NCBI GenBank assembly: GCA_964515405.1
Contig: CAZERD010000003.1
Span: 1-63,376 of the forward strand
DNA from: an uncultured Desulfurellales bacterium
GTDB taxonomy: Bacteria > Campylobacterota_A > Desulfurellia > Desulfurellales > CAZERD01
Direction: 5' to 3'
Length of the DNA: 63,376 bases
The position numbers were made by a program, and so were the translations under genes. Position 1 is the first letter of the stretch; every line of letters starts with the position of its first letter. Positions 14,067-60,451 of this stretch are shown piece after piece. The notes beneath the pieces are model-generated. The model was not told the origin of the DNA and made no database searches. It was given only the letters and a program-made list of their open reading frames with translations.

Positions 14067-14100
14067 CAGGATATAGCATTGTTTTGAACGGAGGCAAACT

Positions 14101-14880: not shown

Positions 14881-14889
14881 GGTTCACAA

Positions 14890-15744: not shown

Positions 15745-15748
15745 GAGC

Positions 15749-43573: not shown

Positions 43574-44339
43574 GGGGTAAACCTAACAGAGCAGCACCAT
43601 AAGCACCAACAAACTGAGGATGCTTGGGTAACTGAGGAAGCTCTCCAATTTCCTCTCTAAGCATTTCTTGGATAGCCCTATTGAGAACAACCCCACCGGA
43701 AAGCATTAGAGGAGGTCTTAACCCGATTATGCCTATCATAGCCACCACCCTCTTCACAAGGGATCTATGGAGACCTCTAATAACAGGCTCAAGCCTTTCT
43801 CCCCGAGCAAGTCTTGAAATTACCTCACTCTCGGCAAACACAGCACATGTGCTTGATATACTTACCTCCTCTTCCGTTGAAAGAGCCACGTTGCCCATCT
43901 CCTCCATGGGGATTCTCAGCCTCCACGCCGAATTTTCAAGAAACCTTCCCGTACCTGCGGCACACTTATCATTCATCACAAAATCTACTACTTTTCCTTC
44001 ATCATCCACTATTATCACCTTGCTATCCTGCCCCCCTACATCAAGCAGAGTACCTCCGTGTCCCATAAACCCAAATATCCCCTTAGCATGGCATGTTATC
44101 TCTGTAATCTTCCTGCGAGCACGACTAACAAGCTTGCTCCCATAACCAGTGGCTACTACAACAACATCAGACAGTCCAAAAGCATGCTCTGTTGCGGCTT
44201 TCTCAAGCACAGTTCTAACCTGTTCCTCCATCCTCGGATCAGTGGGTTCAGATACAGCAAACTCTATCTCACCCCTGCTACTTATACCCACAACCTTTAG
44301 AACAGTAGAGCCAGCATCTACACCAACAGACACAACCAT
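43566..44339 (-). CDS. BcrAD/BadFG/HgdC-type ATPase (archerase/activator of a radical dehydratase or reductase)
   Basis: ASKHA fold ([20 protein letters not shown]) and cluster-bridging Cys segments [13 protein letters not shown] and [10 protein letters not shown]. Confidence 0.85.
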
Positions 44340-44340
44340 G

Positions 44341-45648: not shown

Positions 45649-46745
45649 AATCCCCCTCCAAGTGCCTCTATGAAAGCACCAAGCCTCATGGAAATCTGCT
45701 GCGGAAGGGGTTCATTTATATCCACTTCAATGTCTACCGAATCAATTCCATCCTCCCTTAACATTCTCTTAAGCATGGGTTGATAGAATCTCTCCGGCTC
45801 ACAGAACTTAATATGGTAAAACACTACTCCACTCGCACCAGAGGACACCACAACATCCTTCAGAAACGAAAATCTTTCCCTAAGAGAACTACCCATTGTA
45901 GAATCCGGAGGACCACCAAGTAACCTCTGAGCCATTCTCAAAAACGGATCAGGGGATCTACCCTTACCATATATCCTTCTCCTCAAACACATAAAATCAT
46001 CACCCACAACGGTCCCGCCTAGTTCATCAACCTCATCTAAAACATCCATAGGTTCCGGTACAACACCAGATATAACAACACCCACCCCTTGAGCCCCGGA
46101 GGAACTATCAATAACCTTCATGTAATCACTCAGCACGCCCAAAAACATATTTGGTGGAAGATACTCCCTCGCCCTAAGTATCCTGTAAAACTCCAAGCTA
46201 TGCCCTGTAACACCTCTCCTAAGCTTATAAGCCTCCAACAACTTTTCATCTACCTCTTCCTCTCTCAAGACAGCCTCCATGAAATCATCATCCGACGGCT
46301 TATAACCTGTTACAGAAGCTATCCTGTCACACAAATTTAATATCTCCTCCCTGAGAAACTCCTCACCGTTTCTTCCACCATTACGAGGAAGATATAACGG
46401 ATAAACCGGCCTACCGAGGTTAACAAAGTCAATCAGTAAGCTCCCAAACCCTTGTAGTGAATCACAAGAGTGAGGTACAATAACCATATCCACATCATCA
46501 AAGTGCCCCTTAAGAAAAACCAAAGCACTATGAACAACAGAACACACATAACTCTGAAGATGAACAGATGCAGAAGCAGTATCAATCCCTGGAGGGCCCC
46601 ATATTTCCATGGTGTATACCCCGAAACTGCTGAACAACTCTCTTGGATAGTGGACCGGCAAAACTGCCACTATAGGCTTACCCTCCTCTTTTGCCATCTT
46701 TATAACATCACTCCTCGTCGGTATGCCCACACTCACTCCTTTCAT
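45645..46745 (-). CDS. 2-hydroxyacyl-CoA dehydratase / benzoyl-CoA reductase family subunit (HgdA/BcrC-like)
   Basis: [20 protein letters not shown] family segment. ATG 46745 preferred over the ORF-track TTG 46802, but the start is uncertain. Confidence 0.65.
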
Positions 46746-46805
46746 ATCCACACATCCTAAAGCATCAAAATTCAACCCCGGTAATACAAAGCAAAAAATC
46801 AACCA

Positions 46806-47594
46806 TCAGCGGCATCGCTTCTTGACCTTAGCTTCCTGCCACAGTGTTTCCATATCATCGAGGGTCATATTTTCCAACCGCTTTCCCTCTTTCTGTGCAG
46901 CTTCTTCCATATACCTGAACCTCTCTTCCACCCTATCAATGGCTTTGTGGAGAGATCCTTCTACATCCACCCCCATAAATCTTCCCAAATTTACTGCGGT
47001 GAACAACACATCACCTAGCTCATGCTCAATCCCATCCCTGTCAACGGCTTTCTTCAGTTCCTCAATTTCCTCAAACAACTTATCCCATACACAATCAACA
47101 TTCTCCCAATCAAACCCAACTTTACTCAGCTTCTTCTGTATTTTTTGTGCTCTCAACAGAGCTGGCATTCTTTTAGGTACTCCATCCAAGAGGGATTCTC
47201 TGTTCTTCTCCTCCCTTTTTATATCCTCCCATTGCTTCAGTACACTATCGGAGTCACCAAGTTTAGTCCCTCCGAACACATGGGGGTGCCTCCTTATCAA
47301 CTTCTCAGTTACACTATTCACAACGTCAACTATATCAAATTCTCCCAGGTCCTCCTTTATACGGGAATGAAAAAGAACCTGAAGCAAAACATCGCCAAGT
47401 TCCTCAATTATAAACTCCCTATTTCCACTCTCTATTGCCTCAAAGAGTTCATAAGCCTCCTCTATAAGATTATTCTTTATAGATTCATTAGTCTGTTCCC
47501 TATCCCAGGGACATTCTCTCCTGAGCTTTGAAACCACATCCACAAGCCTCTGAAAAGCTGTACCATCCTTTCTGCATCCACTATTCTCACCCAT
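46806..47594 (-). CDS. mazG: Nucleoside triphosphate pyrophosphohydrolase MazG
   Basis: ECPWDREQT and two EELGDVLLQV / ELGDVLFT MazG repeats. Start set at ATG 47594 behind GGAGGAGGGA. Confidence 0.85.
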   Translation of the reverse strand: MGENSGCRKDGTAFQRLVDVVSKLRRECPWDREQTNESIKNNLIEEAYELFEAIESGNREFIIEELGDVLLQVLFHSRIKEDLGEFDIVDVVNSVTEKLIRRHPHVFGGTKLGDSDSVLKQWEDIKREEKNRESLLDGVPKRMPALLRAQKIQKKLSKVGFDWENVDCVWDKLFEEIEELKKAVDRDGIEHELGDVLFTAVNLGRFMGVDVEGSLHKAIDRVEERFRYMEEAAQKEGKRLENMTLDDMETLWQEAKVKKRCR

Positions 47595-48171
47595 TCCCTC
47601 CTCCAAAATCCATCAACTCAACTCCTGTTGCCCCAAGCTCTATCATTTCATTAATGGCTCTATCCGGGTTTATAACCCCCTTTATAGCATCAAGTAGTAG
47701 AAAAACCTGGAATCCCAGATTCAACCCACCTACTACGGTATGTTTCACGCAAAAATCTGTAGCTACTCCACCAACGAATATTCTCCACACTCCTCGCTCC
47801 CTAAGCAACACTTCAAGAACTGTACCCTGAAATCCAGAATAAGCATCAAACTCTATAGACGTACCCTTTGAAATTATAAATTTATTATCACCAGGCAACT
47901 TTAAACCATCAACAAATTCCGCCCCACTCGTTCCCTTAATACAGTGCTCAGGCCACACACCACCAAATCCCTTAAAAGAAACATGCCCCTCTGGATGCCA
48001 ATCTCTCGTAAAAAAAACAGGTGCACCCACATTAACAAACAAATCCATATACTCATTCAACCGTGGCACTATTTCATCGCCACCCGGAACAGGCAAAGAA
48101 CCCCCCGGCATAAAATCCTTCTGCATGTCTACAACAACAAGCGCATCAGTTTTCCCCACGCTAATCTTCAT
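47587..48171 (-). CDS. pncA: Nicotinamidase/pyrazinamidase (isochorismatase family)
   Basis: ALVVVDMQKDFMPGGSL, TRDWHP, and the catalytic Cys context GGVATDFCVKHT. Confidence 0.8.
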   Translation of the reverse strand: MKISVGKTDALVVVDMQKDFMPGGSLPVPGGDEIVPRLNEYMDLFVNVGAPVFFTRDWHPEGHVSFKGFGGVWPEHCIKGTSGAEFVDGLKLPGDNKFIISKGTSIEFDAYSGFQGTVLEVLLRERGVWRIFVGGVATDFCVKHTVVGGLNLGFQVFLLLDAIKGVINPDRAINEMIELGATGVELMDFGGGNG

Positions 48172-48248
48172 ACTCCACCTCCTATACCTTCTTATTATAG
48201 CATCTCACGTCTGTTTCGAAAACCCACACACAACAAGAACACCTACCT

Positions 48249-48276
48249 TTGACTTTCTTGAGAATATTATTATAAT
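48249..48276 (+). promoter_or_regulatory. Candidate sigma70 promoter for the BI-1/YccA-family gene
   Basis: TTGACT at 48249-48254, a 16-nt spacer, TATAAT at 48271-48276. Confidence 0.55.
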
Positions 48277-48307
48277 TTAAGCTGGAAAACTTGAACGGAG
48301 GGAAAAA

Positions 48308-49009
48308 ATGGAGAATGGAAGATTCATTAGTGGAGAAAGAACATACACTGCTACCATCAGTGCCTTTATGAGCAGAGTTTATATGTGGATGTTCATTGGA
48401 CTGTTTATTACGGCCATAGCAGCATCCATCACAATAGGGGTACCAAGCATATTTGCATTTGTGTACACGCATCAGCTTGTGTTCTGGGGACTCATAATAG
48501 CAGAATTTGTACTCGTATTCTCAATCAGTGGGGCAATAAACAGGATTAGCGCTTCAACAGCAGGAATGTTATTCATCACCTACAGCATATTGAACGGTGT
48601 GTTATTCTCATCCCTCTTCCTGATATACACAAGCACATCTATAGCACTCGCTTTCTTAACTGCATCGGCTATGTTCCTCGTAATGAGCATATACGGGCTC
48701 GTCACAAAGAAAGACTTAACCTCCTGGGGGAGCTTCCTCTTTATGGGATTGGTAGGCATAATAATAGCTGCGCTAATAAATATATTCCTCAAAAGCCCAA
48801 TGATGAATTTCGTTATCAGCGGTGTAGGAGTAATAGTGTTCACAGGTCTCACAGCTTACGACAACCAAAGACTCAAGAAAATGGGATATGAAATAGCAGG
48901 TAACGGGGCATTAGCGAAGAAAATGTCTGTAGTAGGAGCCTTAATGCTCTACCTGGACTTTATCAACCTATTTATCATGCTGTTGAACTTATTCGGGGAA
49001 AGAAGATAA
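48308..49009 (+). CDS. BAX inhibitor-1 / YccA-family membrane protein
   Basis: Seven TM segments, an N-terminal FMSRVYMWM segment, and a C-terminal LYLDFINLFIMLL segment typical of the family. Confidence 0.8.
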   Translation: MENGRFISGERTYTATISAFMSRVYMWMFIGLFITAIAASITIGVPSIFAFVYTHQLVFWGLIIAEFVLVFSISGAINRISASTAGMLFITYSILNGVLFSSLFLIYTSTSIALAFLTASAMFLVMSIYGLVTKKDLTSWGSFLFMGLVGIIIAALINIFLKSPMMNFVISGVGVIVFTGLTAYDNQRLKKMGYEIAGNGALAKKMSVVGALMLYLDFINLFIMLLNLFGERR

Positions 49010-49019
49010 CACTCCCCTC

Positions 49020-49047
49020 AGAGGGAAGGGTACTAACCCTTCCCTCT
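49020..49047. terminator. Perfect 12-bp stem / 4-nt loop hairpin between convergent genes (bidirectional terminator candidate)
   Basis: AGAGGGAAGGGT-ACTA-ACCCTTCCCTCT. The stop codon of the minus-strand gene lies in the loop, and its last codons (KGRGKG) form the 3' arm. Confidence 0.55.
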
Positions 49048-49434
49048 CCCCTTGGCAAATTCAATGTATTCCTTTATCAGTTCCTTCAGCAACTCCCCAA
49101 GCGTCATGTTTATATTTATCCTTGTAGTAACAGCAAAAATTGGAGGTTCTATATCAATCTCTCTAAGCAAGTCCATAGCTCTACTCACTTCTTTCCCATT
49201 CAAACCCGAGAGAAGAATAACTCTTGGAAGTTTCTCATCAAAGAAACCTCCACACTCCATGTTAAGTGCCTCACTGACTTTAACCTTCAGCATTTCTTTG
49301 CAAAAAACCTTCACTGAAACACCAATGTCCTTGGCAATACCTTCTAATCTCTTCACGTCGCGTGCACTATAACCACATACAAGCATAACACGCGGTCCAA
49401 CACCTAACGTACCCTTCAGCGGTTCAAACACCAC
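49033..49434 (-). CDS. Hypothetical protein (DUF3783-like), last gene of the 13-gene operon
   Basis: 133-aa ORF with a GTG start (alternative ATG at 49386), 8 nt downstream of the csaA-like gene. The family assignment is tentative and from memory. Confidence 0.4.
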   Translation of the reverse strand: MVFEPLKGTLGVGPRVMLVCGYSARDVKRLEGIAKDIGVSVKVFCKEMLKVKVSEALNMECGGFFDEKLPRVILLSGLNGKEVSRAMDLLREIDIEPPIFAVTTRININMTLGELLKELIKEYIEFAKGRGKG

Positions 49435-49442
49435 AACACACC

Positions 49443-49808
49443 TCAGAACAGCTTGCTCCCAAGCTTTACATCTTTAGCTGGTGTAACATACGTAGCAACC
49501 CCGCTCTCCGCACCAGGACATTGAACACCTAGTATCAACACCTCAGAAACAACATCCCCCACCCGCTTGGGTGGGAAATTTAATACACCCAAAACAAGTT
49601 TATTTCTAAGTTCATCTATCCCATGACACGTGAGTCTCGCCACACTAGTTTTCTCCCCAAATCTCCCGAAGTTAACCACCAACCTATAGGACTCACACGG
49701 AGCAGATGGCTCCAACCTCACGTCAACAATCCTCCCAACTCGAATGTCCAACCTACCAAATGTATCCCCAAAATCCACAACAGGTTTTATCTCCCTGGCC
49801 TTAGCCAC
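49443..49808 (-). CDS. csaA: CsaA-type tRNA-binding-domain (OB-fold) protein
   Basis: LDIRVGRIVDV, NFPPKRVGDVVSEVLILG pattern of the tRNA_bind/CsaA domain. 121 aa. Confidence 0.7.
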   Translation of the reverse strand: MAKAREIKPVVDFGDTFGRLDIRVGRIVDVRLEPSAPCESYRLVVNFGRFGEKTSVARLTCHGIDELRNKLVLGVLNFPPKRVGDVVSEVLILGVQCPGAESGVATYVTPAKDVKLGSKLF

Positions 49809-49811
49809 ATC

Positions 49812-50459
49812 TCACCCCCTTAAATATTCCATCATCCGCGATAAAGCTCCCCCAACACTCCTAATTGAACATCCTCCAATAAAACCAACCATGGAAACAA
49901 CCCCGTTTTCTTCATCCACTACAATCTCATCACATGCAACATCCACAGGCTGACATCCAAGTTCCGACACAACGTACTCAAATGAGTCCTCTCCGCCAAC
50001 AGCAAGCCTCATCCCAGACCCCTCGAAAATCCTCGCCGCCAACACCACGCTTGCACCAATAAATCCGAGTGGTTTACCGTTATCGTGCAGACCTTCAACC
50101 GCATCTCTAAGGGGCGTAATAATGCCGCAATCAATACCAGCAAAGGCAAAACTACTCAAGTGCTTCAGTACACCAAACCCACCCGGTATAACAAGGGCAT
50201 CCAGCATCCTAAAATTCATTCTTCTAATATCAAAGGCGTCTCCCCTAACAATCCTTGCAGACTCCACAAGTACATTTCTCACCTCAACCTTATTTTCCTC
50301 CGTAAGGTGATTGGCAACGTGAGATTGAGGCATGTTCGGAGCAAAGACTACAGGTTCCAAACCAAGCCTGTCAATATGATACAGCACCAGGGTTGACTCC
50401 ACCACATCACTACCGTCAATACATCCACAACCAGCAAGCACCACAGCAACCCTACTCAT
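49812..50459 (-). CDS. DJ-1/PfpI-superfamily protein, ElbB-like
   Basis: The N-terminus VAVVLAGCGCIDGSDVVES resembles E. coli ElbB (SGCGVYDGSEIHE), plus an FAPN segment. 215 aa. Confidence 0.7.
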   Translation of the reverse strand: MSRVAVVLAGCGCIDGSDVVESTLVLYHIDRLGLEPVVFAPNMPQSHVANHLTEENKVEVRNVLVESARIVRGDAFDIRRMNFRMLDALVIPGGFGVLKHLSSFAFAGIDCGIITPLRDAVEGLHDNGKPLGFIGASVVLAARIFEGSGMRLAVGGEDSFEYVVSELGCQPVDVACDEIVVDEENGVVSMVGFIGGCSIRSVGGALSRMMEYLRG

Positions 50460-50462
50460 ATC

Positions 50463-51512
50463 TCACTCCTCTGATATCCATTCATGCACCCCTCCAGACT
50501 CCTCATGCTCCAGAAATTCTTTGAAAAATTCTCTCAAACGTTCCTTTCTCCTCTTACCCTGCTCACACACAGGGCAAAGCTTCTCTTCCCTATTGGAGTA
50601 AAACTCTCGTGAACACAGCACACAAATTCTTTTCTCAAGTTCAACAAGCTTAACCGCTTTGGGCTTCAAATCAAGTGTAACTCCCACCTCCTTTGAAATA
50701 GCTTCATTCAAACACACATCCACACACGAATCACATGCTGTACACAACGAAGGATTAAAATATATAGCAGCACTGTTCTCTTTCTTTCTCATGATAAGAG
50801 CACCTTGGGTGCACGAGTTCACACACGCGCCACACATGTCACAACCGCCTTTTACTTTGAGCCTATATATGGCACCATACTCAACAACTTTCCCCAAAGC
50901 ATCATCCACAGCCTCTATCATTATATCTCTCTTTGGCTTATGAGGGGTCACAAGTTTCTTTGAAAAGATAAACCTCCTCGACACTGTATTTTTGGGGATA
51001 TGGGGTTCATCAGACAAGGACTCAACAATCAACACATTCTCTAATCCTTTACCCATAGAAAACAGCACGGACTTAGCCCTTTTCAAGTGCTCATCAAATA
51101 CACTGAGCGTCTTTCCAAACCGACACTTCTCACACTTACCCTTCTTGATAATTACTTTTCTCTTCGTCACAGCCCAGGAAACTATCAAATCATCCGTCAG
51201 TCTAGACAAACAAAACACATGAACAGCAGCATCAGAAAATATACACCCTACTTCAACCTCCTCCATTTCAGAAAGCTGCACCAGCATCCTATAATTATCA
51301 GTCTTTATCTCTATCGCCGAGCCTTCGCACGCTGCATAGCATAGACCACAGTGGATGCACTTACCCTTGTCAATAGTCACTGCACGTCCCATCCTTATGG
51401 CACCTACCATGCACACATCCTTGCACCTCTGACACCTACTACCAACAAAAGCAGAATATACGCATCTATCGGTAACCCTAACAAATCCAGCATGAGAAAA
51501 ATCATCAATCAT
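50463..51512 (-). CDS. Polyferredoxin-like protein with a C-terminal CxxC...CxxC zinc-ribbon-like tail, function unknown
   Basis: Cys clusters CQRCKDVC, CIHCGLCYAAC, CDMCGACVNSC and CTACDSCVDVC, then CVLC...CPVC. ATGA overlap with the feoB stop. Confidence 0.7.
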   Translation of the reverse strand: MIDDFSHAGFVRVTDRCVYSAFVGSRCQRCKDVCMVGAIRMGRAVTIDKGKCIHCGLCYAACEGSAIEIKTDNYRMLVQLSEMEEVEVGCIFSDAAVHVFCLSRLTDDLIVSWAVTKRKVIIKKGKCEKCRFGKTLSVFDEHLKRAKSVLFSMGKGLENVLIVESLSDEPHIPKNTVSRRFIFSKKLVTPHKPKRDIMIEAVDDALGKVVEYGAIYRLKVKGGCDMCGACVNSCTQGALIMRKKENSAAIYFNPSLCTACDSCVDVCLNEAISKEVGVTLDLKPKAVKLVELEKRICVLCSREFYSNREEKLCPVCEQGKRRKERLREFFKEFLEHEESGGVHEWISEE

Positions 51513-53398
51513 ACCAAAGCCACCACCTTAATCCCGTAGGCAAGGAAACAAGCCACAAAGAATGTAGAAACAATCAAAGTAATCGTATATTTAACCCCTA
51601 TTTCTCTAACAAGAGCAGCCATTGTTGCTACACACGGCACATAAAACATTACAAACACAGTAAAAACAAGCATTTGTACATGGCTCATGGTAGACGGTAT
51701 CATAGCCAAGCTCGAAACACCAAGAGCCTCATACAGCATCAAAAGTGTAAGTTCCTTCCTCAAAACTCCAAAGATCAGCACTACACCCACAGAAGCAGGC
51801 AAACCAAGCACACCCTCAAGTAAAGGGCTAAAAACGGCATTAATATAGGCGTCCACCCTGAAATATCCCATGAGTGCAAGAGCTATACTACCAGCTACAA
51901 GCATAGGCACGGCTATATAAACGAAATCCTTAATTTTATACCACACCTTAAGAACAAGACTTCTAAAGGTGGGAATACGATAAGGCGGTATATCAAACAT
52001 GGTTTCATGGCTTATACCAGGTATTACTCTCTTTAGCACAACCCCTGCAAGCACCACAACAACTACATCCAAACCATACAGAAAAATAACATAATAATAT
52101 CCAAGGAAATATCCCACAAGCCCCATTATAACAAGACTCCTGGCAGAACACGGCACCAATGAAGCTATAAAGGCAGTGATGAGCTTCTCCTTCTTGTTGT
52201 TCAGCATCCTCGTTGCCATCACAGCCGGAACATTACACCCGTAACCCATTATGAATGGTATTATGCTCATGCCGTGAACCCCCATCTTGTGAAGGAAAGA
52301 ATCCATTAGATACGCAATTCTTGGCAGATAACCCACATCCTCAAGGAAAGAAATTATGAGAATAAATGGTACAAGATAGGGCAAAGCTATGGTCAACGCC
52401 GCTCCTATTCCGTCCACAGCACTCTTTACAATTACGAAAGCCAACGTATTACCCATAACGGATAACAAAACATCATTCACCCTGATAAAGAAATCTCCAA
52501 TGATAGACTCAAACGGTGCTCCCCCCTTAAAAACAACATAGAACAAGGCCAAAAAGACCACTATCATTATGAGATAGCCAAGGATCGGGTGCATAACCAG
52601 AGAATCTATCCTGTCCTCAAGAGAAACTCCCGAACGAGACCTTACCCTGGCACAATGCTCAAATATATCCATGCACAGAGCATGCCTTTCCCTCTCAAGC
52701 GCTCCCTCGGGTATAAGCTCACGGACCTCCTCAAGCCTACCACTGCACCCCACATCCCTTACCATCTCTACGGCAGGCAGAAAACCCTCAACAGCCTTGA
52801 CAGAAAGCAATTTAACAGGCCACTCAACACCACGATGAGGCTTATTCTCCATGCAGTCCATTAATGCATCTATAACTCCCTCCGTCTCCTTAGAATACAC
52901 ACACCGTTCCAAAGGAGGCCTAGCACGTAAAGCTTCTCTCAACAACCTTTTTATATTTTTTCCCTTCCTAGCCACAATAGGAATTACTTCAACACCAAGC
53001 CTATCCTTTAGTTTCCCAACATCTATAGTAATACCTTTCCTCTCCGCTTCATCCATCATGTTCAAAGCCACAACCATAGGTTTATTGAGAGAAATAAGCT
53101 CAAGCGTAAGTTCTATACTCCTTATCATGGAGCTAGCATCGACTATGTTTACTATCACATCTATGCCAAGCGTAAAGATACCATTAACCGCCTCTTTCTC
53201 AGCATCATCGTAATAACTTAAGGAGTAGGTACCAGGTAGATCAACTACCTCAACAACAGTACCGTCAATCATCGTCTTTCCCACAATATAACCTACTGTA
53301 GCACCTGGAAAATTGGCAGGAAGACTCCTATACCCTGCTATGTTATTAAATAGTGTACTTTTACCGCAATTGGGTTGACCTACAAGCGCTATCCTCAA
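51509..53398 (-). CDS. feoB: Ferrous iron transporter FeoB
   Basis: N-terminal G-domain IALVGQPNCGKSTLFN and DLPGTYSL, followed by a polytopic membrane domain. 629 aa. Confidence 0.95.
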   Translation of the reverse strand: MRIALVGQPNCGKSTLFNNIAGYRSLPANFPGATVGYIVGKTMIDGTVVEVVDLPGTYSLSYYDDAEKEAVNGIFTLGIDVIVNIVDASSMIRSIELTLELISLNKPMVVALNMMDEAERKGITIDVGKLKDRLGVEVIPIVARKGKNIKRLLREALRARPPLERCVYSKETEGVIDALMDCMENKPHRGVEWPVKLLSVKAVEGFLPAVEMVRDVGCSGRLEEVRELIPEGALERERHALCMDIFEHCARVRSRSGVSLEDRIDSLVMHPILGYLIMIVVFLALFYVVFKGGAPFESIIGDFFIRVNDVLLSVMGNTLAFVIVKSAVDGIGAALTIALPYLVPFILIISFLEDVGYLPRIAYLMDSFLHKMGVHGMSIIPFIMGYGCNVPAVMATRMLNNKKEKLITAFIASLVPCSARSLVIMGLVGYFLGYYYVIFLYGLDVVVVVLAGVVLKRVIPGISHETMFDIPPYRIPTFRSLVLKVWYKIKDFVYIAVPMLVAGSIALALMGYFRVDAYINAVFSPLLEGVLGLPASVGVVLIFGVLRKELTLLMLYEALGVSSLAMIPSTMSHVQMLVFTVFVMFYVPCVATMAALVREIGVKYTITLIVSTFFVACFLAYGIKVVALV

Positions 53399-53628
53399 CT
53401 ACCATTCATCTCCTCAACTATGATTTTGCTCGCTATTCCTCTCCCAACCACCACGTTACTCCCGTCCACTTCAACCACAATTGGTCCCCTCAACGGTGCT
53501 TTCCTTTTCAGTTTTACAATCACACCCGGGACTATCCCCAGAGAAACCATCCTCATCCTCGCCACGCAACCTCTCTCTATACTCCTAATCCTGTAGCTTT
53601 TACCAAGCTCCCCTTCTATAAGCCTCAT
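53395..53628 (-). CDS. feoA: FeoA-family protein
   Basis: 77-aa SH3-like FeoA pattern (LGIVPGVIVKLKRKAPLRGPIVVEVDGSNVVVGRGIASKI). ATGA overlap with feoB. Confidence 0.8.
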   Translation of the reverse strand: MRLIEGELGKSYRIRSIERGCVARMRMVSLGIVPGVIVKLKRKAPLRGPIVVEVDGSNVVVGRGIASKIIVEEMNGS

Positions 53629-53652
53629 AATCCTCAGCGCTTCAGAGATTGC

Positions 53653-53841
53653 CTACTCCTTATCTCTCTTGGAAAGTTTCTCATCTATTTCAGAAAGCTT
53701 CCTCCTTATTGAAATAAGCACAAACGGCACAATAGCCCAACCAACAACAAAAATAACCACAAAAACTACCAACAACACCGCCATCAACACGGATATAGTG
53801 TTACCAAAGGCCCTTTCGATAATATAGGAAAAATCACTCAT
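53653..53841 (-). CDS. Small single/double-pass membrane protein (62 aa), unknown function
   Basis: Hydrophobic core VLMAVLLVVFVVIFVVGWAIVPFVLI with a charged tail. 4-nt overlap with the upstream gene and a GAGGA Shine-Dalgarno context for the next gene. Confidence 0.4.
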   Translation of the reverse strand: MSDFSYIIERAFGNTISVLMAVLLVVFVVIFVVGWAIVPFVLISIRRKLSEIDEKLSKRDKE

Positions 53842-54740
53842 ATCTTTTCACCTACCACCACAACAAATCCACCCTCGCCATAACCCTCTTTAAATCCTTG
53901 AACATCACTTATATCCGAAAGGGAAAAACCAAACAAGGTTTGACGAACCGACCTAACCTTGAATCCAACAACATCAAACAACCTAATAACTTCCTGTGCT
54001 GAAAAAAACTTTGCCATCCTATAGAACACACTTGCCTCTTTCTTTGAAAGGTACATCTGGCCAATCCTGCTATCCTTATCTACTATGGCAACCACAATCC
54101 TGCCGTGTTCCTCCAATACCCTGTGGGCCTCCTTCAATGCCCTATCAGGTTCCTTAATGAAACATATGGCAACGGCCATCAACACAGAACCAACACTCTT
54201 ATTCTCAAAAGGCAAATCCTCTGCAAAACCAAATTTAATATGCATACCTCTTCTGATAGCCAGCTTCCCCATCTCAAAGGAAGGCTCAACTCCACATCTC
54301 ACGCCGAGGGGAATACCGAATCTACCACTTCCGGCACCAACCTCAAGATCACCTCCATCCGGCAGTACGCTTTTAAGAACAAAGAGTTCAGTCCGATAAA
54401 CTACATCATTCCTTTCAAACCATCCCTCATAGTCCTCTTGGAATTCACCAAACACTGAGAATCCATCTATCCTGTTTCTATAAAAGCCGAGGGCCTCATC
54501 AACAGAGTTAATTCTCCTAAACTCTACCGGTTCTATATCATTCACAATAAAGGGTCTTTCATCAACAACACCCCTTGAAAGCACAACATTTACACCTAGC
54601 CCAACAAGATAGTCACCATCACAATGCTCTACTCTCTTCACATTCCACCTATCTGAATCTAGTACAACCCATTCCTGATCCAGCGAATAATCACCCCTAA
54701 TAAGCTTCCCATTTCCATCGGAACAAACTGCAATCCTCAT
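53838..54740 (-). CDS. Fusion protein: degenerate NifX/NifB-C-like N-terminal domain plus a class I SAM methyltransferase
   Basis: N-terminus MRIAVCSDGNGK...GVNVVLSRG...SVDEAL resembles the Nitro_FeMo-Co domain layout. C-terminal Methyltransf_11-type LEVGAGSGRF and LEEHGRIVV. Confidence 0.6.
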   Translation of the reverse strand: MRIAVCSDGNGKLIRGDYSLDQEWVVLDSDRWNVKRVEHCDGDYLVGLGVNVVLSRGVVDERPFIVNDIEPVEFRRINSVDEALGFYRNRIDGFSVFGEFQEDYEGWFERNDVVYRTELFVLKSVLPDGGDLEVGAGSGRFGIPLGVRCGVEPSFEMGKLAIRRGMHIKFGFAEDLPFENKSVGSVLMAVAICFIKEPDRALKEAHRVLEEHGRIVVAIVDKDSRIGQMYLSKKEASVFYRMAKFFSAQEVIRLFDVVGFKVRSVRQTLFGFSLSDISDVQGFKEGYGEGGFVVVVGEKI

Positions 54741-54749
54741 GCTAGCACT

Positions 54750-55040
54750 CTACTTCTTATCGAGAGCCTTTAGAAATTCCATTGTTTCCTTGGCCCAAAC
54801 AAAGTTTTCCACAACAATATCAACGTCTTCTACACCTTCCAACGAGAGTAACGCCTTCTTTATAGCTATGGCGAGCTGCATTCCCACAGGACAGTTTTCC
54901 ACCGTAGGCCTGAACTTCAGGGATACCTTTTCACCCTCAACCTTAATGTCTCTCACGAGTTGCAGTTTTAATACGTTCTCTTTCAGCTCAGGATCATAAA
55001 CCTCCTCAAGCTTCCTCAACACCACATCTCTCAAACTCAT
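54750..55040 (-). CDS. DUF59 / MIP18-family Fe-S assembly-type protein
   Basis: 96 aa with VYDPELKENV and TVENCPVG segments typical of DUF59 (SufT/PaaD-like). Confidence 0.75.
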   Translation of the reverse strand: MSLRDVVLRKLEEVYDPELKENVLKLQLVRDIKVEGEKVSLKFRPTVENCPVGMQLAIAIKKALLSLEGVEDVDIVVENFVWAKETMEFLKALDKK

Positions 55041-55909
55041 AGTTCACCTATTATTCTACTCAAAATTTCAGAAAACACGCCCCTCAGATGAAAGCAGTAC
55101 TCAACAGCTATCTTTTCCTCCACGAGAGCATCCATAACACACCTATCGAACGGTATCCTTCCCAGGAGTACCATATCTTCCTTTTCAGCAAACTCCTCTA
55201 TCCTATCCCTTACATCCTCATTTACATCGTGTTTATTTATTACTATACCACTCCTAAGCTTGAACGAATTAATCAGATCTTTCAGTCTCTTAAGATCATG
55301 GAATCCTGAGTGTGTAGGCTCAACCACAACAATCGCAAAGTCAGCATCGGAAAGAGTAGATATGACAGGACATCCAATACCAGGAGAACCGTCCACCAAA
55401 ACGTAAGGAATAGATTCCTCATCTGCCACTATACGGGCCCTATGCTTTACCATGGTAACAAGGTTACCGGAGTTTTCGGCACCTGGAAACAGCCTGGCAT
55501 GTATAAACTTCCCATACGCAGTGTCTGACTCAAACCACTCCCCACTAAAAACCTCCACCATATCAATAGCCCCAGAAGCACACGCTATTTTGCAAAGGGT
55601 ACAGCTATCACATCTAACAGGATCCACTTCATAAATGCCAGAATCACTCACACTAATAGCATCGAATCTGCACAACTGCGCACATACATCACACCTGGTA
55701 CACCTTTTAGGGTCTATTCTAGCGATAGACTTTCCCTTGAACAGTTCTCTTCTTTTGACATTGGGCTTCAGAAGTACATGCAAATCAGCAGCATCAGCAT
55801 CAGCATCCACTATAACCTTATTATCAAGCAAAACACACAGGGAAGCAACAAGAGTTGTCTTGCCAGAGCCGCCCTTCCCGCTTACGACAACTATCTCTTT
55901 GACACTCAT
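55037..55909 (-). CDS. MinD/Mrp-superfamily P-loop ATPase with an inserted 2x[4Fe-4S] ferredoxin domain
   Basis: Deviant Walker A VSGKGGSGKT, insert CTRCDVCAQLC and CDSCTLCKIAC, and a conserved GSPGIGCPV. Confidence 0.85.
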   Translation of the reverse strand: MSVKEIVVVSGKGGSGKTTLVASLCVLLDNKVIVDADADAADLHVLLKPNVKRRELFKGKSIARIDPKRCTRCDVCAQLCRFDAISVSDSGIYEVDPVRCDSCTLCKIACASGAIDMVEVFSGEWFESDTAYGKFIHARLFPGAENSGNLVTMVKHRARIVADEESIPYVLVDGSPGIGCPVISTLSDADFAIVVVEPTHSGFHDLKRLKDLINSFKLRSGIVINKHDVNEDVRDRIEEFAEKEDMVLLGRIPFDRCVMDALVEEKIAVEYCFHLRGVFSEILSRIIGEL

Positions 55910-56736
55910 ATTAATTCCCTGATTTTGCCAAGTAATCTGACGAAGCTATCCCTATACTGCTCAACAAACAGATCACCACGTGAGTACTGCTTCATAAAAC
56001 CCTCCGCATAGGGTATCCTATGAATGACATCTATACCTTCTTCCTTGGCATATTCATCTATTATGGTAACGCTTCTATTATCCTTGTTTATCAGTACTCC
56101 AAATTTCTTACCTAGCTTCTTGACAAGCTCTACAGATAATACAAGATCGTTCAATCCAAACGGAGTAGGTTCAGTAACAAGAATCACGTAATCAGCATCA
56201 TGTATAGCCTCAACAACCGGACAACTTGTACCCGGCGGTGTATCCAGTATATTCACTTTTGAATCATCCATATACCTCTTCATGCCCTCAATCAGCGGAA
56301 CAGCACTGGGTTGTCCAACGTCCAACACCCCCTCAATGAAACACACACCAGCAGCAGAACCGATATGGATTTCACCTTTCCTATCCTGAATCTCAACCAA
56401 GGCATCTTCTACAGGACAAACATACTTACACACTCCGCAGGAGTGACATAGATCTTTGAAAAACATCGTTTTCCTTAGGACATTACTCACAACGAGAGCT
56501 TTATACACACAGGCATCTGCACATTTCTCACAGAAAGAACACTCATTCTCATTAATCTTTGGCACCGGCTCAGTGTATTCTATAACCCTTTCTATCACGG
56601 GTTTAAGAAATATATGACCGTTTGGCTCCTCCACATCACAATCCACATAACATGCATTATCAACAGACAAAGCCATCATCACAGCTATACTTGTCTTACC
56701 AGTACCGCCCTTACCACTCGCTATGGCAATCTTCAT
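55906..56736 (-). CDS. MinD/Mrp-superfamily P-loop ATPase with an inserted 2x[4Fe-4S] ferredoxin domain (paralog)
   Basis: ASGKGGTGKT, insert CSFCEKCADAC and CHSCGVCKYVCP, and TPPGTSCPV. 4-nt overlap with its paralog. Confidence 0.85.
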   Translation of the reverse strand: MKIAIASGKGGTGKTSIAVMMALSVDNACYVDCDVEEPNGHIFLKPVIERVIEYTEPVPKINENECSFCEKCADACVYKALVVSNVLRKTMFFKDLCHSCGVCKYVCPVEDALVEIQDRKGEIHIGSAAGVCFIEGVLDVGQPSAVPLIEGMKRYMDDSKVNILDTPPGTSCPVVEAIHDADYVILVTEPTPFGLNDLVLSVELVKKLGKKFGVLINKDNRSVTIIDEYAKEEGIDVIHRIPYAEGFMKQYSRGDLFVEQYRDSFVRLLGKIRELI

Positions 56737-56745
56737 GCCAATCCC

Positions 56746-57078
56746 TCAAAAATGGCTTAAACTCCCCTTTTTAAACCTATCAACAACCTCTTTCACACTG
56801 AGACTCCCATCGGTAACATACATATCTATTGAAGCCATCTTTAATGTCTCCTGGGCGTTAGGGCCAAAACTACCCGATATCACTGCCCTGACACCTTTAT
56901 CTATGCAAAGCTTAGCCACAGATACACCTACCCCCCCATGTTCTCCGGTATGAGGATTTTCAATACTCTCAAAATCACCACTCTCTATATCATAAACAAT
57001 AAAATAGCGGGACCGCCCAAACCTTTCATCAACAGGACTGTCAATGGACGGCCCCATAGCTGTTACAAGTACCTTCAT
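56746..57078 (-). CDS. NifX/NifB-C-terminal-like (Nitro_FeMo-Co domain) protein
   Basis: 110 aa. MKVLVTA...ERFGRSRYFIVYD...GVRAVISGSFGPNA matches the family pattern. Confidence 0.8.
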   Translation of the reverse strand: MKVLVTAMGPSIDSPVDERFGRSRYFIVYDIESGDFESIENPHTGEHGGVGVSVAKLCIDKGVRAVISGSFGPNAQETLKMASIDMYVTDGSLSVKEVVDRFKKGSLSHF

Positions 57079-57317
57079 CCCAACTCCTTATCCAATTTTT
57101 CAAGTCTACCGTTAAGATAATCAAGATACTCCTTAACCCTCTTTATCTCCTCAGAAATAAACCTTTTCTCCTCGCTACGGGATACAGGTTCGTCATAATA
57201 CCACGGATCATACCACCTCCTGAGGCCCCACCTGGGTCTGTCAAAACCGTACACCCATCTCCTACAGTAATATCCTCTCCCAAACCCTCTACCAAATCCT
57301 CTACCATACCCAAACAT
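57075..57317 (-). CDS. DUF5320-like small protein (RG/aromatic N-terminus plus a C-terminal coiled coil)
   Basis: MFGYGRGFGRGFGRGYYCRR followed by the heptad-like EEIKRVKEYLDYLNGRLEKLDKEL. GGAGGTG Shine-Dalgarno. ATGA overlap with the next gene. Confidence 0.55.
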   Translation of the reverse strand: MFGYGRGFGRGFGRGYYCRRWVYGFDRPRWGLRRWYDPWYYDEPVSRSEEKRFISEEIKRVKEYLDYLNGRLEKLDKELG

Positions 57318-57340
57318 AGAGACACCTCCACTTTTTTAGT

Positions 57341-57369
57341 ATTATTGCACAAACACACCATATTGTCAC
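57341..57369 (-). promoter_or_regulatory. Candidate promoter of the 13-gene iron/Fe-S operon
   Basis: On the minus strand: GTGACA (57369-57364), a 17-nt spacer, AATAAT (57346-57341). An upstream TGTATACA palindrome at 57378-57385 sits in an alternating AT tract. Confidence 0.35.
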
Positions 57370-57404
57370 CCCATTTGTGTATACATATATATAGACAGGT
57401 GAAA

Positions 57405-58610
57405 CTAAACCAGATAAAATTCTACCATGCTCCCCCTTTCAATCAGGGAAACCTGCTTAGGAGCAACGAAGAAAGCATCAGCTTGAGAGAGCGTCGTGAA
57501 GTCACCCGAACCGTGATAGTTCAATTCAGATATTACATAGCCAGAGTCAACAAAATCCACCTTACAGGGGACAAAATGAACCCTATCCGGCTTCTTTTTA
57601 AACTCAAAGTCTATCCTCCCCCGGTAGAACGGAGTTATAAAAGCACTGCTCCCCAACAACCTGGCAATCAATCTTTGAACGAAGAGCTTGAACACACTGT
57701 ACGTGGATACTGGGTTTCCAGGCATACCAACTATCCACTTCCCCTCACCCGACCTAGCCAAAACAGTAGGCTTACCCGGTTTCATCGCAACCCTCTGCGT
57801 CAGTATATGAGCTGATATACTCTTAAGTGCAGGAACAGCGAAATCCTTATCTCCAAAGGATGAGCCGCCCGTAATAAGAATAATATCACATTCATCCACA
57901 GCACGCGAAAGAACCTCTGTTATCAGATCTTTATCGTCCCTAACAATACCAAAGAACCTCGGTATCTGAAATACACTCCTTATCTGTGCTATAAGCGAAA
58001 AGCTGGATGAATCTCTTATTTGACCATCAGTTGGCATATCATGTATTTCTACAAGTTCATCTCCGGTCGTCACAATCCCTATGGTGAGCCTTCTCCTGAC
58101 GGGGATCTCAGCCATTCCAAGTGAAGCAAAAAGATTAATCATGCTTGGTGTTATTAACGTCCCCCTATCAAAAGCAACCTCACCCTTTTTAAGATCCTCT
58201 CCTCTGTATGCTATGTTCGCACCCATGCCAACTTTTCCAATAATTTTGACCCTATCCCCTTTAACCTCCGTCTTTTCAAACTCAACCACTGTATCGCAAG
58301 AGTCGGGCACCGGTGCACCAGTCATTATCCTCACACACTCGCCCTTGCCAAGCTCTACAGGTTTGTAATCTCCCGCGTAAACCATATCCCTGACCCTTAA
58401 CTCCAACCCCTCTTCTACATCTCCATACCTACAAGCAAATCCATCCATAGTGGCCTTATTAAATGGTGGCAAATCACACCCAGATATGACCTTATCGCAC
58501 ACCACCCTCCCAACAGCCTCATATATACCAACCTTCTCACATTCTTTTAGCTCTTCAGCAGTATCTATAATAGACAAAGCCTCTTCAAACTCAACCATCC
58601 GTTCCCCCAT
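57405..58610 (-). CDS. moeA: Molybdopterin molybdenumtransferase MoeA
   Basis: MoeA N/linker, MoCF_biosynth (ILITGGSSFGDKD) and C-terminal domains. The start may be ATG 58598 (MVEFEEALSII) behind GGGGGA. Confidence 0.9.
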   Translation of the reverse strand: MGERMVEFEEALSIIDTAEELKECEKVGIYEAVGRVVCDKVISGCDLPPFNKATMDGFACRYGDVEEGLELRVRDMVYAGDYKPVELGKGECVRIMTGAPVPDSCDTVVEFEKTEVKGDRVKIIGKVGMGANIAYRGEDLKKGEVAFDRGTLITPSMINLFASLGMAEIPVRRRLTIGIVTTGDELVEIHDMPTDGQIRDSSSFSLIAQIRSVFQIPRFFGIVRDDKDLITEVLSRAVDECDIILITGGSSFGDKDFAVPALKSISAHILTQRVAMKPGKPTVLARSGEGKWIVGMPGNPVSTYSVFKLFVQRLIARLLGSSAFITPFYRGRIDFEFKKKPDRVHFVPCKVDFVDSGYVISELNYHGSGDFTTLSQADAFFVAPKQVSLIERGSMVEFYLV

Positions 58611-59793
58611 AAATTATCTCTTCTCTCTTCTTGTTCACATATCTCCCCAAACCAACCCCGTTTCCAACAGCCACATCAAACGCTTCTTTCGTAATGTTCG
58701 ATCCGCTTACAGCAAACCTTATACCACTATTAACAATCTTTTTCATGCTCAGAGATGTCAACCTCCCAGATGTAACAAACAACACTTTACCAAGATCAAT
58801 ACCATTCAATAACGCATAACCTACACATTTATCTATGGTATTATATTTACTAACATCCTCGTTCACGAACAGAAGCTTACCGTCCTCTGAAAACAAAGCG
58901 CCACCATGATAGCCACCGACAGCGCTGTGTAGGTATATATTGTTGTTAAATACTATCATAGCATTTTTAATCATCTCAACGGAAGGTCTAAGAGAAACAG
59001 CTTTATCGCCCACGATGTAGGCTTTAGGAACAACCTCAGCATATAGCTTAAGCCCCTCCTGAACCATACTAACTTCATCATTCAACCCAACATAACCACT
59101 AGAGTACAAATACCCGTGCACTAGTTCCTTAAGGAACACAGGGGTAACATTGAGCGCGGCCACCTTTTTATTGTTCAGATAAATATCCATTTGCTTCTCA
59201 TAAACAAGGAACCTTTCAAACGCCGAATCTGCTCCACCAAGTATTACCGAGGCAACAGTTAAATCATATTTAGTATTAATGTTGAAAAGATTCGTGCAAG
59301 TTTTCCATTTAAGCACATCAACACCAAATGAATCTATAAGTTCCTTTATCCTTCTATTGCCACAGCCTTGATATTTAAAAAACTCAAACACCCTTCTTGA
59401 TAAACCAAGTGGAAGAGGCGTCCAATTACCCTCGCACTCAAACATAACAGCACTTGACCCACTTTCAAGGGTTTCAACTATTGCGTCCACCATATTCTTA
59501 TTCACAAACGGCATATCACCACTAAGAAAAACATACCCATCAGCTTCAACTTTTTTCATAACACTATAAACCCCACACAGAGGACCACCAAAGGGTTCTT
59601 CGTCTCTTATAAGTTCAATATCTCCAAATAGTTCATCATTAAACCTACCAGATACATAAACTGGGACCCCATACCTGTTCAACAATGTAATAGGATAATC
59701 TATAAGCCTCCTATTCCCCAGCAAGCTTAGCCTTTTATCTCCTCCAAACCTATAGCTTCTGCCCCCAGCCAACACGCAATAAACAAACCTCAC
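58591..59793 (-). CDS. Fusion of molybdenum cofactor guanylyltransferase (MobA-like) and an FdhD-like sulfur-carrier domain
   Basis: N-terminus VLAGGRSYRFGGDK (the MobA LAGGxSxRMGxDK motif). C-terminus GGYHGGALF, DVSKYNTIDKCVGYAL and VTSGRLTSLSMKK, as in FdhD. Confidence 0.7.
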   Translation of the reverse strand: MRFVYCVLAGGRSYRFGGDKRLSLLGNRRLIDYPITLLNRYGVPVYVSGRFNDELFGDIELIRDEEPFGGPLCGVYSVMKKVEADGYVFLSGDMPFVNKNMVDAIVETLESGSSAVMFECEGNWTPLPLGLSRRVFEFFKYQGCGNRRIKELIDSFGVDVLKWKTCTNLFNINTKYDLTVASVILGGADSAFERFLVYEKQMDIYLNNKKVAALNVTPVFLKELVHGYLYSSGYVGLNDEVSMVQEGLKLYAEVVPKAYIVGDKAVSLRPSVEMIKNAMIVFNNNIYLHSAVGGYHGGALFSEDGKLLFVNEDVSKYNTIDKCVGYALLNGIDLGKVLFVTSGRLTSLSMKKIVNSGIRFAVSGSNITKEAFDVAVGNGVGLGRYVNKKREEIIYGGTDG

Positions 59794-59797
59794 AACC

Positions 59798-60451
59798 TCA
59801 AGCCCCCTTCAACAGACCTTTCTTAGCCTTATCTGCGTATATATGGGCAAGCCTGGTCGGTTCTGGCAACCTATACCCAGCGACGAACATCTTCACCACC
59901 TCAAAACTACTTTCAAGGTCCACAAGATGCCCCACCGACAAAAATACTGGCTTAACCCCCCTTCTGGTTCTCACGACATATCCTATTACATCATTGCCAT
60001 CGTAAAGTAAACTAAAATCCCATTGTTTTTCTCCAACCTCCTTATAGCTCCCTATCAACCTGCTTTTGGCGCAACCTATAGACGGAACCCCGAGTATTAC
60101 ACCAAAATGGCTCGCCAAGCCCAACTTACGGGGATGGGCTATGCCTTGAGAATCAAGTATAAACACATCCGGCATAACCCTCAGGTTTTTAAAAGCTCTG
60201 TATATGGGAGGAAACTCTCTAAAAGAAAGAAAACCCGGTATATAAGGCATTCTTATAGAAGTTATGCCTACACTGAGATCCACAAGGCTTAATGCTCTGT
60301 CAAGTACACATATGGCGGCAAAAGCAGTATTGGTGTTCCTATCAAAAGCAACATCAACTCCGCCAACAAGTTCAACCTCACCCTCAAGTGGTTTCACAAC
60401 CACTTTTCTGGACAAGGCTTCCTGCACCTTAATGAGTTTCCCATAATCCAT
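59798..60451 (-). CDS. nfi: Endonuclease V
   Basis: GGVDVAF, PYIPGFLSFREFP and SVGH segments. 217 aa. Confidence 0.9.
   Translation of the reverse strand: MDYGKLIKVQEALSRKVVVKPLEGEVELVGGVDVAFDRNTNTAFAAICVLDRALSLVDLSVGITSIRMPYIPGFLSFREFPPIYRAFKNLRVMPDVFILDSQGIAHPRKLGLASHFGVILGVPSIGCAKSRLIGSYKEVGEKQWDFSLLYDGNDVIGYVVRTRRGVKPVFLSVGHLVDLESSFEVVKMFVAGYRLPEPTRLAHIYADKAKKGLLKGA

Follow-up and report, generated by a model that had tools for sequence, protein, structure and literature searches.

We analyzed a 63,376-nucleotide stretch of DNA (hereafter the window; contig CAZERD010000003.1) from an uncultured Desulfurellales bacterium. The window contains 13 minus-strand genes arranged head to tail, among them genes for a NifX-like protein, two ferredoxin-containing ATPases, and the Fe(II) transport proteins FeoA and FeoB (Table 1). 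An earlier note, made from the sequence without database searches, had proposed that the 13 genes encode one pathway from Fe(II) uptake to the assembly or delivery of a metal cluster.

We found all 13 open reading frames (ORFs) of the array, from 57317 to 49033, in the ORF listing. The largest gap between neighboring genes is 24 nt, as the note had described. Six of the junctions are indeed 4-nt start/stop overlaps; five have the sequence ATGA and the sixth, between feoA and feoB, is TTGA. The other gaps are 3, 3, 8, 9, 9, and 24 nt. Purine-rich motifs resembling ribosome-binding sites (RBSs) are located ahead of nearly all starts in the array.

The 13 genes are probably on a single transcript. 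The runs containing this sequence are DNA only, and we therefore infer the transcript from sequence. Promoter-like matches within the array were at chance level (22, compared to 24.5+/-4.9 in shuffled sequences), as were terminator-like matches (11, compared to 8.6+/-2.8). A promoter-like site upstream of the first gene is probably the start of the predicted transcript, and a hairpin following the last stop codon, with a weak T-run, may be its terminator (Table 1). The window has no Rfam matches and no tRNAs, hence no riboswitch for molybdenum cofactor (Moco) or any other. No Fur box was found using the E. coli-type consensus with up to 3 mismatches, and k-mer footprinting of six regions upstream of DUF5320 genes yielded only the RBS and an A-rich leader.

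The array is not an assembly chimera, because independent contigs bridge key junctions without differences. Logan contigs from the source run cover the junctions DUF59/fusion (53519-56253), FeoB/polyferredoxin (48500-52868), and DUF5320/MoeA (56723-57489) with zero differences. The sequence is present in three DNA runs from a hydrothermal-vent study, and the sample is a vent metagenome.

Table 1. Genes and signals of the 13-gene array, in order of predicted transcription
Feature	Position	Strand	Evidence	Junction to next gene
Promoter-like site GTGACA-17-AATAAT, TG before -10	57341..57369	-	Consensus scan; in 87-nt gap after MoeA	
DUF5320-family protein, 80 aa, Gly/Arg-rich repeat and C-terminal coiled-coil-like part	57075..57317	-	PF17253 29.5 bits	4-nt overlap, ATGA
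NifX-like single-domain protein (Di-Nase, MTH1175/TM1290/ORP family), 110 aa, Orp8-like	56746..57078	-	PF02579 (Nitro_FeMo-Co) 82 bits	9-nt gap
ATPase 1, MinD/Mrp superfamily with inserted 2x[4Fe-4S] ferredoxin, 276 aa, Orp3/Orp4-type	55906..56736	-	CbiA/ParA and Fer4	4-nt overlap, ATGA
ATPase 2, ferredoxin-inserted MinD-type, 290 aa, Orp3/Orp4-type	55037..55909	-	CbiA and Fer4	4-nt overlap, ATGA
DUF59/FeS_assembly_P protein, 96 aa, conserved PTVENCPVG cysteine	54750..55040	-	PF01883 53 bits	9-nt gap
Fusion of decayed NifX-like N-domain and TM1293-type class I S-adenosylmethionine (SAM) methyltransferase, 300 aa	53838..54740	-	Methyltransf_11 at residues 132-217	4-nt overlap, ATGA
62-aa membrane peptide	53653..53841	-	4-nt overlap with fusion gene; directly upstream of feoA	24-nt gap
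FeoA, 77 aa	53395..53628	-	PF04023 68 bits	4-nt overlap, TTGA
FeoB, 629 aa, TTG start, G-domain and permease	51509..53398	-	FeoB_N 169.8 bits, Gate x2, FeoB_C	4-nt overlap, ATGA
Polyferredoxin, 349 aa, two 2x[4Fe-4S] pairs and C-terminal CxxC...CxxC ribbon	50463..51512	-	Fer4 families	3-nt gap
ElbB-type DJ-1-family glyoxalase, 215 aa	49812..50459	-	NF008747 201.8 bits, cutoff 180	3-nt gap
CsaA-like tRNA_bind protein, 121 aa	49443..49808	-	PF01588 29.9 bits; TIGR02222 82 bits, below cutoff	8-nt gap
DUF3783-domain protein, 133 aa	49033..49434	-	PF12646 60.5 bits	
Terminator-like hairpin	49012..49028	-	Scan; directly 3' of last stop, between array and convergent Bax1-I gene	

The ORP-type core

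Nearly all of the domain calls made in the earlier note were confirmed with Pfam and NCBIfam hidden Markov models (HMMs). We found that the NifX-like protein and the two ATPases are the Orp8/Orp3/Orp4 core type of the Desulfovibrio orange protein (ORP) complex. The note had presented this core as having no assigned function and as part of a candidate undescribed system; it is of a type already published. The complex was reportedly described in 2011, in J Bacteriol 193:3207, and further by Pardoux et al. in 2019 (PMC6345978) and Fievet et al. in 2021 (PMC8359166). In Desulfovibrio vulgaris, it includes the similar proteins Orp3 and Orp4, which have two [4Fe-4S] ferredoxin motifs apiece and a MinD-like amphipathic helix at the C terminus; its other members are Orp5 and Orp8, both NifX-type with a single domain, and MrpORP (PMC6345978). 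Orp3, Orp4, and Orp8 are purified together, MrpORP transfers Fe-S clusters to them in vitro, and ORP and Orp8 bear a [S2MoS2CuS2MoS2] cluster (PMC6345978).

We compared the window to two samples of 80 loci each, taken from among the matches listed and without the closest relatives. One consists of ORP-type loci (L002-L081) from Bacteria and Archaea with 40-49% identity to ATPase 1; the other consists of FeoB loci. Like the Desulfovibrio genes, those in the window encode paired paralogous P-loop ATPases, with two [4Fe-4S] motifs each, beside a single-domain NifX-like (Di-Nase) protein. Both systems are confined to anaerobes, and a sigma54 enhancer-binding protein (EBP) gene is found at 11/80 homologous loci, as in Desulfovibrio. 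The window differs in that the array has no MrpORP gene and has a stand-alone DUF59 protein instead. The MrpORP model NF041136 gave partial matches to separate genes (for the NifX-like protein and both ATPases) at 30-36 bits, compared to a cutoff of 450. In addition, the window unit is led by a DUF5320 gene, is one predicted operon rather than the two divergent operons of Desulfovibrio, and is joined to a Feo unit.

The annotated genes on either side of the array (45645-60451) include no OrpR-type EBP gene. The sigma54 -24/-12 pattern occurred at chance level (28 matches, compared to 25.7+/-5.5 expected), with none in the gap upstream of the DUF5320 gene. Downstream of the Feo unit, at a distance of a few kb, two related loci (L082, 18749-20831; L087, 18729-20283) encode a histidine kinase and a sigma54-dependent response regulator on the opposite strand. 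This pair is reminiscent of OrpR-type control.

ATPase 1 has >8000 homologs. The closest are 54-59% identical, and the best named relative is that of Hippea maritima (57% identity). Eight cysteines, the motifs GKGGTGKT and EEPNG, and Cys172 at the switch-II position were invariant in an alignment of 26 sequences. The AlphaFold2 (AF2) model of ATPase 1 (pLDDT 92) has a long C-terminal helix at residues 258-275. The nearest solved folds are MinD, FleN, ATPase-type HypB, Cfd1, and ApbC, about equally similar at 15-19% identity, so that Cfd1, ApbC, and HypB are as close as MinD; comparison with this model found no solved member of the ferredoxin-inserted subfamily. The gene for ATPase 2 always follows that for ATPase 1 in the relatives.

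The ATPases share several features with the SIMIBI proteins Mrp/NBP35/ApbC, Cfd1, HypB, CooC, and NifH: a dimer-type fold, the deviant Walker A motif GKGGxGKT, and a conserved cysteine following the Walker B aspartate. Unlike the SIMIBI metal-delivery ATPases, they have a 2x[4Fe-4S] domain after the P-loop region and lack the CxxC Mrp signature. They also differ from MinD, scoring only 23-54 bits on the minD_bact and minD_arch models (cutoffs >200) and carrying the ferredoxin insert, and the array has no minC or minE.

The NifX-like protein matched PDB entries 1rdu (E=1.7e-19), 1eo1 (MTH1175; 1.2e-16), and 2wfb (D. gigas ORP; 3.3e-12, residues 2-106). We take 1rdu to be TM1290. The NifX-type domain (IPR003731/PF02579) is also found in IssA, the thioferrate storage protein of Pyrococcus furiosus, and in the NifX/NafY/NifB-C carriers, where it holds iron-sulfur or FeMo clusters. 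The best matches of the window protein are TM1290 and MTH1175 rather than IssA or the nitrogenase carriers, and it ends at residue 110, without the cationic C-terminal tail that is a feature of IssA (PMC6345978). We noticed no nifHDK, nifEN, or nifB genes among the window ORFs, in a window that was only partly annotated with HMMs.

The first gene of the array appears to be incomplete. Its product matches only profile positions 37-99 of DUF5320, i.e., the C-terminal two thirds, and is truncated at the N terminus relative to the family. Five orthologs score 107-111 bits over their full length, and all have the N-terminal motif PWGDRTGPxGxGPRTGRGLGxC. This motif was not found for the window gene in any of three frames, and there is no frameshifted remnant of it. 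The DUF59 protein scored 47.6 bits on SUF_assoc, under the cutoff for that model. DUF59, an accessory-type domain, is the only Fe-S assembly-type domain in the cluster.

The Feo unit and its candidate accessory genes

As in FeoAB(C) operons, feoA is followed by an overlapping feoB encoding a G-domain, gate domains, and FeoB_C, and FeoB passes TIGR00437 (437 bits; cutoff 315.65). The window differs from these operons in three ways. It has no FeoC; the genes for the membrane peptide and the NifX::methyltransferase fusion precede feoA, which we found only in this clade of FeoB; and feoB is followed by an overlapping polyferredoxin gene.

The 62-aa membrane peptide is 48% identical to its counterpart in L082, and members of the family are 61-66 aa long in other lineages. 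An HMM search of 38,350 translated ORFs from all of the loci fetched found the family only with the NifX::methyltransferase-FeoAB unit, in four other lineages. A protein database search with the peptide returned the query itself alone.

The methyltransferase domain of the fusion protein, called in the earlier note and confirmed by Pfam, was modeled with high confidence (AF2, pLDDT >90) and is a close structural match to TM1293, a SAM-dependent methyltransferase of Thermotoga maritima (PDB 1vlm; TMt 0.96, 43-44% identity). The NifX-like half of the call holds through orthologs, which match PF02579 at 34-40 bits; the N-terminal domain in the window has no Pfam match at E<=0.01. The NifX assignment rests on these orthologs because the domain matched NifX-like proteins only weakly in profile-profile comparison (probability 15%, E=0.0018) and the AF2 model failed (pLDDT <50 for residues 1-77). 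The domain in the window (54366-54740) is short by ~13 residues, including the conserved segment ENPY..DKHHD. Unlike TM1293, the window methyltransferase carries a fused NifX-like domain, now decayed, and is tied to feoAB. Among 1.84 billion representative proteins, the TM1293-type family is nearly always stand-alone (~210 aa), and fusions to NifX make up only three or four 50%-identity clusters.

Other relatives of this methyltransferase indicate possible substrates. Elsewhere, TM1293-type methyltransferases are fused to rhodanese, C_GCAxxG_C_C (putatively redox-active), and glyoxalase domains (in proteins P0207, P0252, and P0239), a hint that the substrate may be related to sulfur or thiols. 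In a metagenome-assembled genome from Spirochaetota (L091, 5177-7624; L092), genes for DUF134, a NifX-like protein, and two small ORFs accompany a TM1293-type methyltransferase that is 45% identical to the window domain. This cluster adjoins genes for an ArsP-type permease, an SBF (Acr3-like) protein, and thioredoxin, a possible metalloid context for the NifX-methyltransferase pair. Together, these contexts point towards sulfur, thiol, or metalloid chemistry. TM1293 is presumably three locus tags from TM1290; if 1rdu is TM1290, as we assume, Thermotoga may have the same NifX-methyltransferase neighborhood. We also considered the methyltransferase as a general ORP component and rejected this idea: the methyltransferases near ORP-type loci are mixed, and none has the TM1293-type C-terminal motif.

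Distribution, proposed function, and alternatives

We found that the array consists of three modules of differing evolutionary range and is not a coherent 13-gene system. Module (a), DUF5320-NifX-ATPase-ATPase-DUF59, is present gene for gene and with the same overlaps in five lineages (L082-84, L087-88, L175, L176, and L177), one of which, L175, is the cultured bacterium Hippea maritima (DSM 10411; CP002606.1, ~1.204-1.223 Mb). Unit (b), comprising the NifX::methyltransferase fusion, the membrane peptide, FeoA, and FeoB, is kept together in L082, L087, L176, and L093. Group (c), polyferredoxin-ElbB-CsaA-DUF3783, was found only in the window and beside neither the ATPases nor FeoB at the 160 loci compared. 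Upstream of the DUF5320 gene, the relatives have a clearer promoter, of the TTGAC(A/T) type, than does the window. In the simplest history, a patatin gene and an internal promoter, both still found between (a) and (b) in relatives (see below), would have been lost, the two units would have merged into one transcript, four unrelated genes would have been appended, and parts would have decayed.

The linkage of module (a) to FeoAB appears to be non-random, a view supported by adjacency kept in three sister lineages. A NifX-like gene is next to the ATPase pair at 70/80 ORP-type loci. DUF5320 HMM matches were found at 46/80 of these loci and at only 1/80 FeoB loci, and DUF59 follows ATPase 2 at 1/80 distant ORP-type loci. 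Genes for FeoB, Fur, and DtxR are within ~6 kb at 6, 8, and 4 of the 80 ORP-type loci, respectively, for a union of 13 loci that come from Chloroflexota, Acidobacteriota, Clostridia, Altiarchaeota, and others. Those linked to Feo are in Dehalococcoidia, Chloroflexia, Acidobacteriota, Clostridia, and Altiarchaeota. By a rough estimate rather than a computed control, ~0.5/80 would be expected by chance (for a one- or two-copy gene, a 10-kb span, and a 3-Mb genome).

FeoB and Fur are among the 15 neighbor families, out of 558, that were found at six or more loci; 496 families were seen once. Other recurrent neighbors of the ORP-type core are an FmdB-type Zn ribbon (22 loci), DUF89/ARMT1-like (17), radical SAM with a helix-turn-helix domain (16), DUF134 (15), a metallo-beta-lactamase hydrolase (15), class I methyltransferases (12), the sigma54 activator (11), DUF364/DUF4213 annotated for 'heavy-metal chelation' (8), and DUF1847 (6). 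At least five distant lineages (L016, L047, L052, L114, and L027) have independent same-strand arrays of ORP, Fur or DtxR, and Feo genes. One of these, L114, is a metagenome locus with the tight array NifX-NifX-ATPase-ATPase-Fur-FeoA-FeoA-FeoB. The L114 and L052 clusters have palindromes upstream, which were not convincingly shared. In nitrate-grown cells of D. desulfuricans, the homologous genes Ddes_1864-1867 fall along with feoA, feoB, and flavodoxin (PMC5701242). As judged from these gene neighborhoods, the link to iron homeostasis is recurrent and independently arisen, and is a minority arrangement.

These results lead us to suggest that the array is a lineage-specific merger of two neighboring units with four passenger genes, with a single transcript that would begin at a promoter near 57345 and end at a hairpin near 49020. 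FeoAB, by family membership, would import Fe(II). The membrane peptide and the NifX::methyltransferase fusion may be accessory factors of this clade of FeoB, as indicated by their strict co-occurrence and translational coupling. The two ATPases would form a heterodimer loaded with [4Fe-4S] clusters and bound by the NifX-like carrier, and would consume ATP in assembling, holding, or transferring an Fe-S cluster or another metal-sulfide cluster, perhaps with DUF59 as a transfer adaptor. Binding of the NifX-like carrier to the ATPases was shown for the Desulfovibrio homologs and would extend to the window, and the role in clusters is proposed by analogy with the Desulfovibrio complex and the SIMIBI metal-delivery ATPases. 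The module would serve the iron or Fe-S economy under anaerobic iron demand because it is predicted to be co-expressed with Feo and because Fur or DtxR genes are embedded in such arrays in other phyla. We regard a merged array with an ORP-type module in the iron or Fe-S economy as the best explanation overall, and our confidence in the whole of it is evenly balanced. Direct passage of iron from Feo to this module is hypothetical.

Several observations weigh against an iron-related function for a merged array. The earlier note had named a promoter splitting feoAB from the upstream module as evidence against its proposal. Such a promoter is absent from the window and present in its sister lineages: where unit (b) is beside module (a) (L082, L087, and L176), an antisense patatin gene and a sigma70-type promoter, TTGATA-17-TAgAAT, are located between them, and by sequence the two are predicted to be separate transcription units. 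Hippea and L177 have module (a) without an adjoining Feo unit, 74/80 ORP-type loci are without Feo, and only 1-2/80 FeoB loci (one of them L114) have the module. The truncated DUF5320 protein and decayed NifX domain of the fusion make a finely tuned machine of 13 genes less likely. Neither the 13 products nor those of the flanking genes include a cysteine desulfurase or a scaffold (IscU/SufBCD/NifU). In addition, the homology of the ATPases to Orp3 and Orp4 (DVU2103/DVU2104) is inferred from architecture and context, and the role of the ORP complex itself has been called unclear, with cell division as a tentative hypothesis (PMC8359166).

Some of these observations would also be explained if the ORP-type system, perhaps with a role in cell division or redox, and the Feo system were independent and simply juxtaposed, coming to share a transcript after loss of the antisense patatin gene, with the distal four genes as passengers. 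The patatin gene and promoter that persist in the sister lineages, the occurrence of unit (b) alone in L093 and of module (a) alone in Hippea and L177, the restriction of the distal four genes to the window, and the decay of two components all fit this explanation. The independent arrays in at least five distant lineages and the presence of FeoB and Fur among the 15 recurrent families speak against it. We consider simple juxtaposition possible, though doubtful. A function in molybdenum or tungsten metabolism is a further alternative, in which the NifX-like protein would bind a Mo (or W)-Cu-sulfide cluster and buffer or deliver thiomolybdate or thiotungstate for Moco enzymes. The Mo-Cu cluster of ORP and Orp8 (PMC6345978) is consistent with this idea, as is the location of co-directional genes for a MobA::FdhD fusion and MoeA upstream of the array, across a gap of 87 nt, and MoeA and MobA are near 2/80 and 1/80 ORP-type loci, respectively. 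However, these frequencies are below those of Feo, Fur, and DtxR, Moco genes adjoin the module in no close relative, and no Mo or W transporter is among the recurrent neighbor families. The promoter-like site between the Moco block and the array and the absence from the window of Rfam matches, including any Moco riboswitch, also argue against a Mo/W function, which we judge to be improbable.

The ATPases might instead be spatial regulators associated with the membrane, the role originally suggested for the ORP complex of Desulfovibrio, with the iron genes unrelated to them. MinD, FleN, and ParA are among the nearest solved folds, ATPase 1 is modeled with a long terminal helix (residues 258-275), Orp3 and Orp4 have a C-terminal amphipathic helix, and inactivation of OrpR in D. 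vulgaris causes morphological defects (PMC8359166, PMC6345978). Against a MinD-like role, the similarity to MinD is no higher than that to HypB, Cfd1, and ApbC, each ATPase has eight invariant ferredoxin cysteines and a switch-II cysteine, and the partners are metal-cluster proteins (NifX-like at 70/80 loci and, in this clade, DUF59) rather than MinC or MinE. A true minCDE set is located elsewhere in the relative L093. We think it very improbable that the ATPases act in positioning or cell division.

The earlier reading of the array is thus partly supported. One coherent 13-gene pathway gave way to three modules with four passengers and two decayed parts. The linkage to FeoAB that it stressed is tight here, is kept in three sister lineages, and recurs in distant phyla, and most ORP-type loci are without FeoB. 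What is new in the window is an ORP-type core with DUF5320 and DUF59 in place of MrpORP, joined physically, and probably translationally, to a clade-specific Feo unit. ORP-type complexes, known since 2011, are very widely distributed among anaerobic Bacteria and Archaea, and their recurrent tie to FeoAB, Fur, and DtxR is a testable lead that they function in iron or Fe-S handling rather than in cell division. The parts list is widened by DUF5320, found at more than half of the sampled ORP-type loci, and by DUF59, found in this clade where Desulfovibrio has MrpORP. Two candidate accessory genes, one encoding the NifX::TM1293-type methyltransferase and the other the small membrane peptide, go with a narrow clade of FeoB. 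The five-gene module is also present in a cultured organism, the vent bacterium Hippea maritima, which could be used for experiments.

A bolder version is that the ORP-type set (the NifX-like carrier and the ATPase heterodimer, with DUF5320 and, in this clade, DUF59) is a widespread iron/Fe-S machine of anaerobes that takes up Fe(II) that Feo brings in and Fur or DtxR senses, and uses ATP to store or deliver it as Fe-S or iron-sulfide, and that FeoB in this clade has two new accessory subunits (the 62-aa peptide and the NifX::methyltransferase). We consider this version unlikely. If true, it would add an Fe-S or iron-trafficking route beyond ISC, SUF, and NIF.

Distal genes and flanking DNA

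The last four genes of the array are beside neither module (a) (0/80 loci) nor FeoB (0/80 loci) elsewhere. An ORF with CxxCxxCxxxC directly downstream of FeoB was found at 0/58 other FeoB loci, and the polyferredoxin is absent from both 80-locus samples; its PDB matches are through the ferredoxin domains only. The ElbB, CsaA-like, and DUF3783 genes are probable passengers. We found no solved relative of the DUF3783 protein and no useful literature on DUF5320, COG1149, DUF3783, or TM1290-1293. A GC-rich hairpin with an 11-bp stem (CCCACCC...GGGTGGG) is located inside the CsaA-like coding region (49554-49579, minus strand).

Upstream of the array, and not mentioned in the earlier note, the same-strand block extends through genes for EndoV, the MobA::FdhD fusion (400 aa), and MoeA (60451-57405), the last two of which overlap by 20 nt. 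This Moco-maturation block is separated from the array by the 87-nt gap. On the other side, just downstream of the convergent genes for Bax1-I, a nicotinamidase-like protein, and MazG, is a Pfam-confirmed HGD-D-family gene (2-hydroxyacyl-CoA dehydratase D-component, 385 aa; 45645-46802, minus strand). Two unannotated minus-strand ORFs (435 and 257 aa; 43566-45648) precede it.

Farther away, the region 14050-15770, amid plus-strand genes, has no long plus-strand ORF, and a 298-aa Ser/Leu-rich ORF on its minus strand looks like an antisense artifact; the region may be a pseudogene or non-coding. The window as a whole has a strong strand-linked GC skew, reaching -0.3 to -0.43 over blocks of minus-strand genes, i.e., purine-rich coding strands. 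Together with the Glu/Lys/Val-rich proteins and the vent origin, this skew suggests that the organism is a thermophile.

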